Below, in pieces: positions 2,099 through 55,500 of a stretch of DNA of 64,000 nt (position 1 is its first letter; the number at the start of each line of letters is the position of its first letter). Source of the DNA: Pecten maximus (taxonomy: Eukaryota); assembly GCF_902652985.1 (NCBI RefSeq), contig NC_047021.1, positions 25,544,001 through 25,608,000 of the forward strand. The letters are read 5' to 3'. A model generated the notes under the pieces. That model was not told where the DNA came from, made no database searches, and was given only the letters and a program-made list of their open reading frames with translations. The translations under genes and the position numbers were made by a program.

Positions 2099-2671
2099 TC
2101 CTCTTAAATCCGCCAGTGTCCATGGATCAAGTGGCAGGGTTGAAGCAGAGCCCCCGGAAAAGTATTGCATTATTACTGTGTCTAGCAAGCAGGTACATTG
2201 TATATCATTTTATGGTCGAAATCACAACAGTTTTCGTGTCATAACCAATGGACCATGCCCAGAGGGTCGGGAATCGGTAACGGTTCTTGGTACGCCAGCA
2301 TGATTTTGTTAGTTCCTTCATGTCCAGTAAGGGGATATATAGTCGTGGTGTGTACATCTCTACCACAACTATTGTACTTTACTATTAAGTTATCGCCCTT
2401 GTTTAATTTGAACCATTGGTGTGTCCCCATTTATCCTCCCATATCTGCCATATCTGTAATATTGAAGGAGATTTTTAAATTTCCATACCCATTTTAGTTT
2501 TAATGCTGAAATTTCAACCTATGGGCCCATTTTTAACAATTTAATAATTATCTACACGCACATGTATTTTCTCCAATGGAATACCAAAGCTGTCTCAATT
2601 ATAATGGCTGGACTTTCCTTTTGGAACTCTGTGAGGTCGAAGATCATGAACTTTCCTTGAAGAAATCAAGA

Positions 2672-3203
2672 TGGTTTGATTTAGTTTATTTTGTTTAACG
2701 TCCTATTAACAGATAAGGTCATTTAAGGACGGCCTCCCGTGCGTGCGACATGCATGCGTGTAGTGAGTGCGTATGTGTGTTTTGGGAGGCTGCGGTATGT
2801 TCGTGTTAAGTCTCCTTGTGATAGGCCGGAACTTTTGCCGATTTATAGTGCTACCTCACTGAGGCATACTGCCGAAGACACCCAGCAGGACACTCTACCC
2901 GGTCACATTATACTGACAACGGGCGAACCAGTCGTCCCACTCCCAAAATGCTGAGCGTTAAGCAGGAGCAGTAACTACCATTTTTAAAGACTCTGGTATG
3001 TCTTGGCCAGGGGACAGAACCCAAAGCCTTCCTCACAGGGGCGAACGCTCAACTAAAGGCCAAAAGTGAGGCATTGTCAAGGGAAACATTAGGAAGAAGT
3101 TGCTAAGAAAGAAGAGTAAAGATAAGATCCCAAGTTTAGTCGCCTCTTACGATCATGCAATGGGGGCAGCAGGTATAATTCTTACGCCCTACCTGCAGGG
3201 CAG
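2672..3203 (-). mobile_element. full-length tRNA-derived SINE (Nin/Deu-domain-like) with a 5' leader
   Basis: Flanked by a 13-bp TSD GAAGAAATCAAGA (2659-2671, 3204-3216). Minus strand has an A/B-box-like tRNA head (~3005-3072), a central GGTCACATTATACTGAC-type conserved block and an AAAC-rich tail. Diverged copy at 53261-53867. Confidence 0.85.
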
Positions 3204-4217
3204 GAAGAAATCAAGACTGTCTTATGCGAAGCAAATAAATGAATAACCAGGGACAATGGACACATGTCTTTGTGGTGCGATCTGCATAGATATCGCAGAG
3301 TTTATGGCGAATTTCCTCTCCTGCAAAGCTACAACAGAATATCGTCTCCACCAGCCATGTTCTGTAGTAGTCAATCCCCATATACTGACGGCTCTTCTCA
3401 CGAGATGTGTGATTATATAGGCTCTACTTCGTTCTCTGGCCCCAATCACTTCACCCTTAAAATATCCTAATTTATCATCATTTTGCGATTGATATATACA
3501 AATATGGCTACTCTAGACAACCCTCTAATTGCGCCCTGTGTTGTATTCCAAAACCATGTAAACTACAGGCGGTGACATAAATTATCATGTTTATATTCGT
3601 TAATTACGAAGCATGTTCACACTCCTCTTCGGGGTGTACAATAGGACTATGTCCCTTTATCAAAATATTACTAGCTGGTTTTCAATGGTCCAAAGGTAGT
3701 CATGCTTATAGCATACTACTTTTCAAAGACCACATAATTAGGGACCACTTGTCAGCAACAATGATACTAAAACGCCTAGAGGAAGATAGGGTATTTTTGT
3801 GTCTGAAGGAATTTAAGTTGAGCAATACGACATCCGTCCATACCATAACCTTGAGTGTATATCATTGAGGAACTTTGATATGTCCACATGTCCTATCAAT
3901 CACAGTAAAAAAAATGAATAAAAGAAAAATAATAAATGATCGAGATTTACTTGTTATACGAGGCCGGCTTTATCAAAGTGCGTTAATTATTTTAACGTTA
4001 CTGACATGAGCGATATATGCCAAGTGAACGTGGATGTATCTCGATTTCTATAGATACAGTTCACACTGATAAAAGGGTAGACCATATAAACAACGTAGCC
4101 ATAGGTAAACTGTGAAGTATAGAGAAAGACAATGAGATCTCAATGTAAAATATAAATGTCCTGATTCAAGCTGAAATTTTACATTAACCTGACGAGGGTT
4201 AGCACGAAATCACGTTT

Positions 4218-45801: not shown

Positions 45802-46306
45802 AAATGGATATTATAGCATAAAACAAAAAGCATTGATAGGAACTTACAGAATTTATTATATACAACAATACAGTATATTGTATTTTATAACATACTTATA
45901 AAAACCACGAGCCAGCTAGGGATAACATCAAAAACAATAATACATTCTATAATAACCAGTATGTCACTTTCCAGACAACTTTTCAAATACTGTTCCCTTT
46001 TAGATTAAGATTATTTCATTAAATCTAATCAAATCACATTGTCAGGAAAAATAACAATCTAATATATATATATAAAAAAATGCTGTGATTGATCTTTTAA
46101 ACTATATCAGGCCTCCATGTGTTCTTAAAACAATAACATTTAATACACATTTCACCTAAAACGAAATTGATTTTGGCAACAGAGAAGATATATCTACAAG
46201 TATAAAGCTCTCTGTTGAATAATATTTTCAAACTTCAAACAATAGTGTCATCATCAAAAACATACTTAATACTTGGGAAACATACTGATGCCTTCTGATA
46301 TATGGC

Positions 46307-47700
46307 ATGGACATTGGGTGGAGGATGTATGGGGTTGTGTAGTGAACATTGGGTGGAGGATTTGTGGGGTTGTGTAGTGGACATTGGGTGGAGGATGTGT
46401 GGGGTTGTGAAGTGAACATTGGGTGGAGGATGTGTGAGGTTGTGAAGTGGACATTTGGTGGAGGATGTGTGGGGTTGTGAAGTGGACATTGGGTGGAGGA
46501 TGTGTGGGGTTGTGAAGTGAACATTGGGTGGAGGATGTGTGAGGTTGTGAAGTGGACATTTGGTGGAGGATGTGTGGGGTTGTGTAGTGAACATTGGGTG
46601 GAGGATGTGTGGGGTTGTGAAGTGGACATTGGGTGGAGGATGTGTGGGGTTGTGAAGTGGACATTGGGTGGAGGATGTGTGGGGTTGTGTAGTGAACATT
46701 GGGTGGAGGATGTGTGGGGTTGTGTAGTGGACATTGGGTGGAGGATGTATGAGGTTGTGTAGTGAACATTGGGTGGAGGATTTGTGGGTTGGGAAGTGAA
46801 CATTGGGTGGAGGATTGGTGGGGTTGTGTAGTGGACATTGGGTGGAGGATGTGTGGGGTTGTGTAGTGGACATTGGGTGGAGGATGTGTGAGGTTGTGAA
46901 GTGAACATTGGGTGGAGGATGTGTGGGGTTGTGTAGTGAACATTGGGTGGAGGATTTGTGGGGTTGTGTAGTGAACATTGGGTGGAGGATTTGTGGGGTT
47001 GTGTAGTAAACATTGGGTGGAGGATGTGTGGGGTTGTGAAGTGGACATTGGGTGGAGGATGTGTGGGGTTGTGAAGTGGACATTGGGTGGAGGATGTGTG
47101 GGGTTGTGTAGTGAACATTGGGTGGAGGATGTGTGGGGTTGTGTAGTGGACATTGGGTGGAGGATGTGTGGGGTTGTGTAGTGGACATTGGGTGGAGGAT
47201 GTGTGAGGTTGTGAAGTGAACATTGGGTGGAGGATGTGTGGGGTTGTGTAGTGAACATTGGGTGGAGGATTTGTGGGGTTGTGTAGTGAACATTGGGTGG
47301 AGGATTTGTGGGGTTGTGTAGTAAACATTGGGTGGAGGATGTGTGGGGTTGTGAAGTGGACATTGGGTGGAGGATGTGTGGGGTTGTGAAGTGAACATTG
47401 GGTGGAGGATGTGTGAGGTTGTGAAGTGGACATTGGGTGGAGGATTTGTGGGGTTGTGAAGTGAACATTGGGTGGAGGATATGTGAGGTTGTGAAGTGAA
47501 CATTGGGTGGAGGATTTGTGGGGTTGTGTAGTGAACATTGGGTGGAGGATTTGTGGGGTTGTGTAGTGAACATTGGGTGGAGGATTTGTGGGGTTGTGTA
47601 GTGAACATTGGGTGGAGGATTTGTGGGGTTGTGAAGTGAACATTGGGTGGAGGATATGTGAGGTTGTGAAGTGAACATTGGGTGGAGGATTTGTGGGGTT
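46307..47700. repeat. 35-bp G-rich minisatellite, about 40 copies
   Basis: Unit GTGAACATTGGGTGGAGGATGTGTGGGGTTGTGTA with a few variant positions. Confidence 0.97.
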
Positions 47701-48238
47701 AATTGTCAAGAAGCTTTCGGCAGATATGGTAATCCTCCTATTTGCTCACCAATGAAGCTTAGAAATAACATTCTTGATCTCAAAACATTTTGATGATTAT
47801 TCTAATAACTGTTCATATCTCCAGTTTAAAGATTTGTGTGTTCAAGAAAATATCTTAATTTCAACAAAACAATTACATTAATGCATATCTAGATATACAT
47901 TAAAAAAAAAACAAAGATAGTTCCCAAGTGACAATTTCTGAAAAATACTTTCATCCTTATCACTGACCAAACAAATTATGTATTTCGAGCTATTGCTTCA
48001 TCATTCATATTTTTTCCCTACACTATGAATTTTATTTATGAGATATGGAAAGTTATCCTGTGGAATATTTATACTTATTTAAAGCAAAGTTTACTACTGA
48101 TGTGAACACATACAATCCAATATGACTAATAAAGTTGCAAACAGTCAGAAGTGGAAAGAAGAATGTAAAAATTGACACACATAATAATTGATTTCAGAAA
48201 TATTTCCATTTGGTCGTTAATTGATAAAAACAATTGTC

Positions 48239-52560: not shown

Positions 52561-55500
52561 ATGGCCGCGACCATGCATCGTCTGCGAGCTGGAAGGTTGT
52601 CAGGTCTTTTGAGTTCTTTCGTCAAGGATTCTCAGAGAGTAAGATTTATATGCTTACCTATTGACAGAAAAAGAATATATCTATCGTTTTGACTAATAAG
52701 AAGAACTACTTAGCTTTCCTTCCTTATATCATATGATAGTTTTGCGATGACATTGAATACAGTATAATTTTATCGTCACCAGTTTTGACGAACATCATTA
52801 TTCTCTAGACTATTATCTTTGTTACCTTTGTATGACGTCTGTAGTAATACTATTTATTCAAGTAAAGCATACACAGTACAATAGTATCACATATATGTTA
52901 TACAATATTTACATCATTTCATCATAGTACAGATGTTCTGTAATTAAATCAGCATTACTACCAGCTGAATATAACTACATTTTGTACTACATGCAGAGTG
53001 TCTTTTGAATCTAGCTGGCGTTAGATGTCATAGTTTTATCATTACTAAAGCAACCAAAAATACAAAATTCTCTCTTATGTACATACATTATATCCCAGTG
53101 CATGACACATAATCATCTATCCAGTGGATAATCCACTGACAGTGACAGTTAGTATAGTCATTGTCACAAAGAAGAAGAAGACATTTTGACTTATGTGCAT
53201 CAAAATGTCATTTTGATGATATGGTGCTAGGACCTGATGAAAGTCAGACTTCCTTTTTGTTCGGTTTGGTTTAGTATATTGTTTAATATGAATTAGGAGC
53301 TACCATCAGCCAAGGTCATTTAAGAACAGCCTCCCCTGTGTGTGAATGCATTCATGTGGTAGTTATAGCATGCATGTGTTTTGGGAATGCTACCGTACAC
53401 TATGTCTGTGTTTATCTTCTGGTGATAAGTCAGAAACTGATGCCAACATATATAGTGCTACGTACATCACTGAAGCATACTACTTAAAACACCCAGACAT
53501 ATATATATACCCCACCCGTTCACATTATACTGACAACAGGTGAACCAGCTGTCATCCCTGCACTCCCAAAAATGAGGAGCATTAAGCAGGAGAAGCAAGT
53601 ACAAACTATCATATTTATCAACATTGGTGTACATGTATGTCTCTGCCAGGGGACATAACCCAAATTTAAAGTCTTCCTCAAAATGCAAGCTCACAGGGGC
53701 GAATGCTTGACTAAAAGCCAAAAGTGATGAAGTGCAAAAGGAGGCAAAAGGATGAACAAAGTTGGTAGAAACAAGAGAAAAGTCAGATAATTAGATCCCA
53801 AATTTAGTTCCATGTTTCTTGCAATGGGTGCAGCAGGTAAAATTTCTATGCCCTAACTGCAGGGGAGGCTATCTTTTAGCTGGCCTACCAAACATTTCTC
53901 TAAAGTATTTAAGGCCTAATCATAAAACTGTAACCATGAACTGCATGCTGATTGAAGAAACACACAGGACAGGCATAAATATCTTAACAACAATAATGTA
54001 CATGTATATGATAATGGGTATATTTACATGTCATGTACATCCTGTTGTAGTGGAGTTTGCATGGTGCTGTGTTAGAAGTGAAAGCAACCCATCTGCAGCT
54101 TAATAGATTCTCTAGACTTACATATTTACATTTACTGACTAATATCTACCAGGATCAGCAGTATTAACAGTTGCCCAGAAAACCTTTGGTATCAGAAATT
54201 TAGTAGTCAATACAGATGGTAGTTGCTGACTTGCTACTCCTGCTTTGCACTCAGCATTTTTGGGAGAGGGATGACTGGCTGGTCCCTATGTCAGTATAAT
54301 GTGACTTGGTGGGGTGTCCTCCAGTATGCTTCAGTGAGGTTGCACTATAAAGTCAGCATCAGGTCAGGAGACAAACATGGATAACAACCATACAATGTAT
54401 GTCAGAAATTGTGATCATCCATCTGTCGTCCAGAGCTACGTTTTCGCAGTTATAAAGTGTGATTATACAGGTACATTGTACATGTACAAGATTGTAATCA
54501 AATTGACAGGTCTTTTGGCTACACAATATTCTTATGTTCATTTAGGTAATAGTGTACAAGTCAGTTTGGCTACACTTTATATAAAGCCTGATAATTGATG
54601 TGAGTTGGTCCCAACCTTGTCAACAATTAGAACTGATCTGCTACAGCATATCCAGGTGGTTTCTTCACCTGCTGCTTGAAAATGTAACTCTCTCTTTGTC
54701 AAACACTTTCAAATTATTCCAGTCAATGGCATGGTTGTGTTGTGTGGCATGATCTGTGATTGTCATGAAATTTGAAGATCGACTATTACTCCAGATCTCC
54801 CAGTTTCTTAATGAAACTAAATAATGTGTTGCTTGTACAACACTGTGCTACAATAAATTAAACTTAACTTTGTAAATGGAAGTCAAAGATGAAGGGATTT
54901 TTCGTGGGACTTGAGATGATTCTTACAGCTTATTATGATTCTTACAGCTTAATCTTTTAAAAATCAAGAGGTCATTCCTCATACTAAAAGTCCCATGCCA
55001 GTGATGTCACTTTGCACTGTTTTCAGCTTATAACCATTGATCATTTATTTAACTTTTTTAGGTTGTAAAACCTTGTGCTGCAGTTCAGACAAAGACATGT
55101 CACAAACGAGATTACACTGGTGAGGTAAGTTATCGGGATAAATTGCATCATGTTTCAGTTTAATAATTTAATATGAAAAAGGAATCTTATGTCACATATT
55201 TTATACTCATATGACAAATATGTACATATTGAGAGCATTTGAAGTGTAAACTTAAGAATAAAACCACTTTATGGTTGTCAGTGATGTATACAGCTTTAAA
55301 TACTAGATTTTCAGAATGAGCGAGAAATATGTATTTCAATATAAAAAAAAAAAATTAAACCTAATGATATTTTATTTCTTAACCATTGTAGAACCTGGCC
55401 AAATATGGAGGAAGAAATATGGTGACAGCTTTGACTGGAGATGGTGTTGGACCAGAGCTCCTTTCTCATGTCCAGGAGATATTCAGGTACTGCATCACTT

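Follow-up and report, generated by a model that had tools for sequence, protein, structure and literature searches.

By comparison of sequences, one predicted fold of ~75 nt is conserved between shellfish, other animal repeats and unrelated viruses. In the window, by which we mean the whole 64,000-nt stretch of DNA analysed here, this fold makes up the start of a SINE on the minus strand and carries conserved UCGUAAGAGGCGACUAA. We put at about one half the probability that these first ~75 nt act as an Xrn1-resistant (xrRNA-like) roadblock that would fix the 5′ ends of retroelements. The exact full-length 5′ ends of promoter-less LINEs and SINEs have so far been explained by ribozymes, and such a roadblock, if the model is true, would be a further route.

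The SINE and the 5′ ends of its copies

The layout of the element, with its flanks and an older copy of it in the window, is as follows.

3204..3216, no strand assigned: upstream copy of the 13-bp TSD, which pairs with 2659..2671
2659..2671, no strand assigned: downstream copy of the 13-bp TSD
2672..3203, minus strand: full-length SINE of 532 bp, bounded by the 13-bp TSD and fitting the pectinoid MESC SINE of PMC4758252 as described in the portions covered
3129..3203, minus strand: conserved RNA motif, a predicted double pseudoknot with helices A-E, from comparative alignment and a model
3062..3128, minus strand: C/T-rich spacer with a T4 run at 3065-3062 (Pol III stop signal)
3003..3061, minus strand: tRNA-like head with degenerate A and B boxes, the B-like one at 3021-3012
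2672..2702, minus strand: SINE 3′ tail, closing in CAAA-type repeats
53312..53868, minus strand: old decayed copy of the whole SINE, 69.5% identity, with the motif at 53792-53869 (30 bits)

The original prediction, made from the letters of the window, took the TSD to set the 5′ end of the SINE at 3203, and the 13-bp duplication at 3216-3204 and 2671-2659 bears this out. The long 5′ leader that it described ahead of the tRNA-like head is also present, but its length of ~130 nt has to be corrected to ~142 nt, with the head beginning at ~3061. A decayed version of the leader, placed at ~53790-53867, was recovered within the homologue of the element listed above. This decayed copy is adjoined by a fragment of the SINE central domain that lies on the opposite strand (54231-54351, plus strand, 75% identity). 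Elsewhere in the window, positions 46001-48000 have an extreme GC skew of 0.68 and are probably a simple repeat. A first look at the 918-Mb genome gave at least 1112 candidates for the SINE leader.

We also compared the element with the pectinoid MESC SINEs of Matetovici 2016, as described in the portions covered of that paper (PMC4758252). The MESC SINEs are ~520 bp long compared with 532 bp here, and flanking TSDs and CAAA-type 3′ repeats are found in both. The first 68 bp of the MESC SINEs have matches at the 5′ end of each of Nimb-17_LMi, I-3_DR and RTE-9_CPB, and the same segment also heads the ‘LP-SINEs’ (PMC4758252, in part). In our element nt 1 to the CUAA end is likewise 68 nt, followed by a C/T-rich region and the tRNA head, and the distance from the CUAA end to the head is ~74 nt compared with 88 in the paper. 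From layout and length, and not from matching letters, we infer that the leader is very likely the sequence described in 2016 as a putative LINE promoter. The 2016 paper notes an analogy to the Pr77 promoter/ribozyme, and the portions of it covered give no RNA structure, covariation or viral copies. In the literature searched (text only, with few subscription papers), no description of the fold or of its viral copies was found. The element and its leader are thus very likely known already as sequence.

The 5′ ends of the copies are uniform. Among the 30 top copies, chosen with a query that included the SINE 5′ end, the alignment begins at nt 1 in 28 and at nt 2 in two, and 17 have a TSD that ends no more than 2 nt from nt 1. 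An unbiased set of 29 copies was selected by the tRNA head alone. Seventeen of these start at nt 1, three at nt 3, five at nt 6-22, three at nt 105-117 and one at nt 151. The clustering of 5′ ends at the motif that was anticipated for the copies is thus seen in 20 of the 29, which begin at nt 1-3. A clean start at the tRNA head, as expected of a Pol III tRNA-SINE, was found in none of the 29 head-selected copies. In the nt-151 copy (L351, same genome) an inverted piece of the leader precedes the head, as twin priming would give. Across five repeat families conservation sets in 0-1 nt before helix A, as determined from exact-anchor copies only (15/39, 12/31, 11/26, 7/12 and 5/20).

All 38 parsed copies have a T4 run separating the motif from the head, and the A and B boxes are degenerate; in the tRNA-like head of the window no regex match to an A box was obtained and ARAGORN reports no tRNA. 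Because of the lack of clean head starts, the T4 run and the degenerate boxes, the retrotransposed SINE RNA is unlikely to be a Pol III product.

Fold of the leader and its covariation

The strand order of the fold is A5-U-B5-A3-(variable)AGAAU-B3-C5-loop with E5-C3-UG-hairpin D-UAA-E3. Its parts in the window are listed below.

3202-3198 with 3189-3185, minus strand: helix A, 5 bp, with loop 1 = U3197, from sequence and swap tests
3196-3190 with 3175-3169, minus strand: helix B, 7 bp, from covariation
3184-3176, minus strand: A-rich loop 3, 9 nt, containing conserved AGAAU
3168-3166 with 3158-3156, minus strand: helix C, 3 bp, immediately after B, from covariation and swap test
3139..3154, minus strand: hairpin D, with G3154-C3139, bulged A3153, UCG/CGA and the loop UAAGAGG
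3164-3161 with 3132-3129, minus strand: helix E (second pseudoknot), 4 bp, optional across families

Across copies, loop 3 accepts long insertions. The H-type pseudoknot of two stems that had been read from the sequence is present, with stem 1 growing to 5 bp, stem 2 having 7 bp and loop 1 being 1 nt. Its extent was underestimated, however: the knot is only the 5′ half of the ~75-nt fold, and C, D and E had been missed.

The evidence for the knot from the single sequence is weak, since across the whole window the 4+7 bp descriptor has 14 matches and nested folding of 3120-3210 gives an MFE z-score of -0.15, no better than shuffles. When the first 40 nt were shuffled with dinucleotide content kept, a 4+7 bp H-type knot arose by chance in 2 of 5000 cases. 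Nested folding of 3120-3210 prefers a rival 5′ hairpin that uses a TSD base, and the MFE structure of the exact 77 nt includes B, E and D. It is the comparative data that bear the claim.

An unfitted alignment was made from 13 non-viral copies, which had been selected on D. In this alignment pairing holds at 94.5% for B, C and D, compared with at most 58% for slid controls, and 30 both-side changes are observed compared with 10.3 when shuffled (0/500), with shuffle and swap controls alike treating families as unrelated (kinship ignored). Hairpin D is invariant in the alignment, partly through the selection of copies on D, and its pairing is thus predicted only. When the strands of 18 representatives were swapped, cognate pairing was reached in 0 of 20000 swaps for A, B and C and in 20 of 20000 for E; for B and C this result is biased, the registers having been picked on cognate pairing. 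A swap test on 13 held-out copies, with registers set by landmarks, avoids this bias and gave 1 (A), 0 (B), 0 (C) and 491 (E) of 20000. Helix A pairing was not part of the model when it was tested on these held-out copies. The check for covariation in both stems that was proposed with the original prediction thus had a positive outcome: B covaries across families, as does C, and A passes the held-out test.

Helix E is more variable. It has at least 4 bp in 14 of the 18 representatives and lengthens to 5 bp in a related species, and it has at most 2 bp in three of the six virus records described below. Among the six virus records alone it is unsupported (5896/20000 swaps). For the fourth pair of helix A, no compensation was found in this species. 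Judged by the comparative data, the leader is a real, widespread structured RNA.

An intron was considered as another source of the signals in this region (donor-like at 3192, branch- or acceptor-like near 3138-3103) and was rejected, no such joint being among the RNA-read joints listed.

Distribution in animals and viruses

A 17-nt core with the preceding non-A base has 150 exact matches in the genome, compared with 0 for a reversed control. The original prediction had linked the 17-nt motif to other elements, and other animal repeat families do indeed carry it at their 5′ ends. In the same genome there is an older family of ~400 bp, without a tRNA head, that has 2-3 tandem motif copies (the third by eye); its copies are ~70% identical to each other and its 3′ tail is similar to the SINE tail. 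The last unit of this family resembles the SINE leader, which suggests a common origin. Copies of the older family were noted at L101, L102, L107, L111, L112, L115, L098, L106, L127 and L130.

A metagenome search for the motif gave at least 120 stretches, which group into several repeat families. One of these is a second, independent SINE family (L162, L165, L202, L211 and L213), in which only a few nt separate the motif from the tRNA-like head behind it, whose A box is good. Others of the metagenome families with the motif carry no tRNA head. Tandem copies of the motif are found in a viral 3′ UTR (L072), in the old head-less family and in reads of a related species. Among 185,579 prokaryote genomes there are seven matches (L369-L375), all with the fold (37.8-68.4 bits). 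All seven lie in MAG or symbiont assemblies, most of them followed by SINE-like tails or microsatellites, and they are likely contaminating animal DNA. Phage-type matches with the fold were not found. No autonomous LINE with the motif was found, the ORFs 3′ of the motif having no Pfam match. In L372 (352-683) the motif is followed by a short frame, also without a Pfam match, which we take to be similar to the start of a LINE endonuclease; L372 is perhaps an internally deleted LINE.

In the viral collection all five exact matches carry the whole fold and represent four distinct viruses. A looser pattern added two further virus records with the fold, so that there are six virus records in total, from five distinct RNA viruses and one DNA virus. 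The looser viral patterns gave mostly chance matches (25/30, 41/48, 12/13 and 10/17). With a covariance model built from the 13 non-viral copies, the six virus records score 38.6-64.4 bits and other matches at most 22.4 (40 loci).

All five RNA viruses carry the motif in coding-strand orientation; the last stop codon lies 6-101 nt ahead of it, and the contig end is 15-107 nt away. The Pfam domains in these viruses are a tombus-type coat, RdRP_3, a nodavirus-type capsid, a tetravirus-type capsid and a toti-type RdRP_4. These RNA viruses have no DNA phase, and the presence of the fold in them therefore argues that the motif functions at the RNA level. At L086:4585-4615, in a viral 3′ UTR, a second pseudoknot with A and B only follows the full motif; it was seen by eye and the model did not detect it. 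In the 212-kb DNA virus record the motif is intergenic (L271:5951-6029), and its position, 120 nt past one stop and 150 nt ahead of the next ATG, is ambiguous. It is flanked by a 152-aa ORF and by a 1046-aa ORF that is kinase-like by eye and has an NAGPA domain.

These data bear on a promoter-only reading, in which the leader would be an internal Pol II promoter from a LINE 5′ UTR, as proposed in 2016, and nothing more, its pairing being incidental. The ~68-70 bp common to SINEs and three LINEs stand at the 5′ end, as the proposal has it (PMC4758252, in part). An internal promoter would yield uniform starts, and the T4 runs and decayed A and B boxes speak against Pol III. What the promoter leaves unexplained is the compensatory changes, together with the recurrence of the fold in RNA viruses that lack a DNA phase, and as the sole explanation we consider it very improbable. 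A promoter role may be added to the role of the RNA.

Possible roles of the fold

In the roadblock model the SINE would be transcribed by Pol II within a host or read-through RNA. Decapping or an upstream cleavage would open this RNA, and a 5′-to-3′ exoribonuclease (Xrn1/Xrn2) would trim the flank. We infer that the exonuclease would meet the three-dimensional fold of the motif and stall at the base of helix A. What is left would be a stable RNA whose 5′ end is always the same, to be copied by a LINE reverse transcriptase starting from the 3′ tail. In the viruses, the fold just past the last stop codon would shield the RNA on its 3′ side, which would persist as a subgenomic RNA.

The roadblock is favoured because one function must suit both the first base of a retroelement and the start of a viral 3′ UTR. 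The placement expected of an xrRNA, with the end at the first helix and, in viruses, just where the 3′ UTR begins, was found in five of five RNA viruses and in five retroelement families. The model is further supported by the 5′ ends lying 0-1 nt before helix A, which resembles published halt sites: in coremin the halt site is one nt upstream of hp1 (PMC10520033, in part) and in ST9a it is at the P1 base (PMC11702639, in part). A eukaryote-specific partner such as Xrn1 would also fit, as the prokaryote matches are likely contamination and no phage-type fold was seen. 

Several points speak against a roadblock. Four known frameshift H-type pseudoknots failed to stall Xrn1 (PMC10321173, in part), so that helices A and B alone would be insufficient. 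The motif matches no described xrRNA class, helix E is unsupported in the virus records, the fourth A pair is uncompensated and the position in the DNA virus is ambiguous. In raw RNA-seq runs of a related species no pile-up of read starts was seen at the element boundary, a question that standard RNA-seq cannot settle. In addition, the viral position is explained equally well by the strand order, which is that of the ribosome-binding TSS (T-shaped structure).

Another reading takes the motif for a miniature TSS-like element that binds ribosomes. In viruses it would enhance translation from the 3′ side. In retroelements it would tether LINE or SINE RNA to ribosomes and so bring this RNA to the reverse transcriptase, and the 5′ end would be fixed by an internal promoter that overlaps the motif. 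The order A/B/C/E/D corresponds to Psi3/H4a/H4b/Psi2/H5 of the turnip crinkle virus TSS 3′CITE, giving the same succession of three hairpins and two pseudoknots (H4a/Psi3, H4b/Psi2, H5), and B directly adjoins C just as H4a adjoins H4b (PMC5336357, in part). Like this 3′CITE, as described in the portions covered, the motif lies in 3′ UTRs of related viruses, tombus-like ones included, and its distribution is restricted to eukaryotes. The TSS, however, needs five upstream adenylates (PMC5336357, in part), while our elements start at helix A, and the exact 5′ ends would require a second function. The motif is also smaller (~75 nt compared with ~100 in the sources covered) and occurs at retroelement 5′ ends as well. 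In place of the large, stable H5 (-21.8 kcal/mol in the part of the source covered), it has a tiny third hairpin, D, of 4 bp and ~+0.5 kcal/mol with a conserved loop, and its second knot is optional, the shortness of helix E in half of the virus records being a further point against this reading. We consider a TSS-like role unlikely.

Exact 5′ ends, and a 17-nt core conserved from animals to viruses in the manner of catalytic cores, would also be expected if the motif belonged to an undescribed class of self-cleaving ribozymes, cutting just 5′ of helix A and thereby releasing the element from transcripts of the host. LINE 5′ ends are known to carry ribozymes (PMC5786205 and PMC6765202, in part), as are linear RNA viruses (10.1101/2024.05.16.594327, in part). 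The viral ones mostly sit in 5′ UTRs according to the covered part of the latter source, and a cut at the motif would sever the viral 3′ end from the genes, both of which speak against a ribozyme. The HDV-like ribozymes of R2, RTE and L1Tc/Pr77 share with the motif that a short module with a double pseudoknot is common to unrelated elements and gives an exact 5′ end (PMC6765202 and PMC5786205, in part); the motif differs from them in helix order, has no counterpart of P3/L3 and is kept in tandem copies. An active ribozyme cutting at its 5′ side would presumably trim such elements, so that the retention of inner tandem copies fits a roadblock better. In the related-species run X21, 471 loose-end reads were counted at the boundary compared with a depth of ~670, most reads continuing into the flank, which is weak evidence against cleavage, since decay is common among the copies and half of them are antisense.

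The order hairpin-CUAA-helix E resembles P4-J4/2-P2 of the HDV ribozyme. HDV-like ribozymes are defined by P3-L3-P3 and the 3′ strand of P1 lying between the 5′ strand of P2 and P4. In the 18 representatives only a few nt lie between the 5′ strand of E and D, with no space for P3-L3-P1, and an HDV-like ribozyme was rejected. A hammerhead ribozyme was rejected as well; its core consists of CUGANGA and GAAA and is absent from 3203-3120. The earlier judgement that the fold fits neither the HDV-like nor the hammerhead consensus therefore stands. The Rfam check proposed at the same time was also negative: the curated models (HDV-like, hammerhead, twister, pistol and hatchet) gave no relevant match in the window, at gathering or at E up to 10, and none in five virus records at E up to 5. 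We regard a ribozyme of an undescribed class as quite unlikely. The original prediction of an undescribed 5′-processing or 5′-protecting motif thus holds as far as it concerns a conserved structure at the exact 5′ end without an Rfam match, and its 5′-protecting option coincides with the reading favoured here. As the leading explanation, a ribozyme is not supported.

Returning to the roadblock, we compared the motif with the xrRNAs of flaviviruses (classes 1 and 2), of tombus- and luteoviruses (class 3) and with coremin, as described in the portions of the literature covered. These are likewise based on pseudoknots, stand at the start of viral 3′ UTRs and are protected from the first helix, or from the nt just ahead of it, and in flaviviruses they too occur in tandem. 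In secondary structure, helix order and sequence the motif is unlike classes 1-3 and coremin, and it has no Rfam match. We tentatively suggest, at somewhat less than even odds, that it is a new class of xrRNA traded between eukaryotic viruses of three or more kinds (+ssRNA, dsRNA and large DNA) and animal non-LTR retroelements. Through it, host RNA decay would provide promoter-less LINEs and SINEs with an exact 5′ end, without a promoter or a ribozyme. The motif differs from the published classes also in its location in cellular retroelements; the covered part of a 2021 review counts xrRNAs in cellular RNA as not yet found and as a goal that was still open (PMC8374639).
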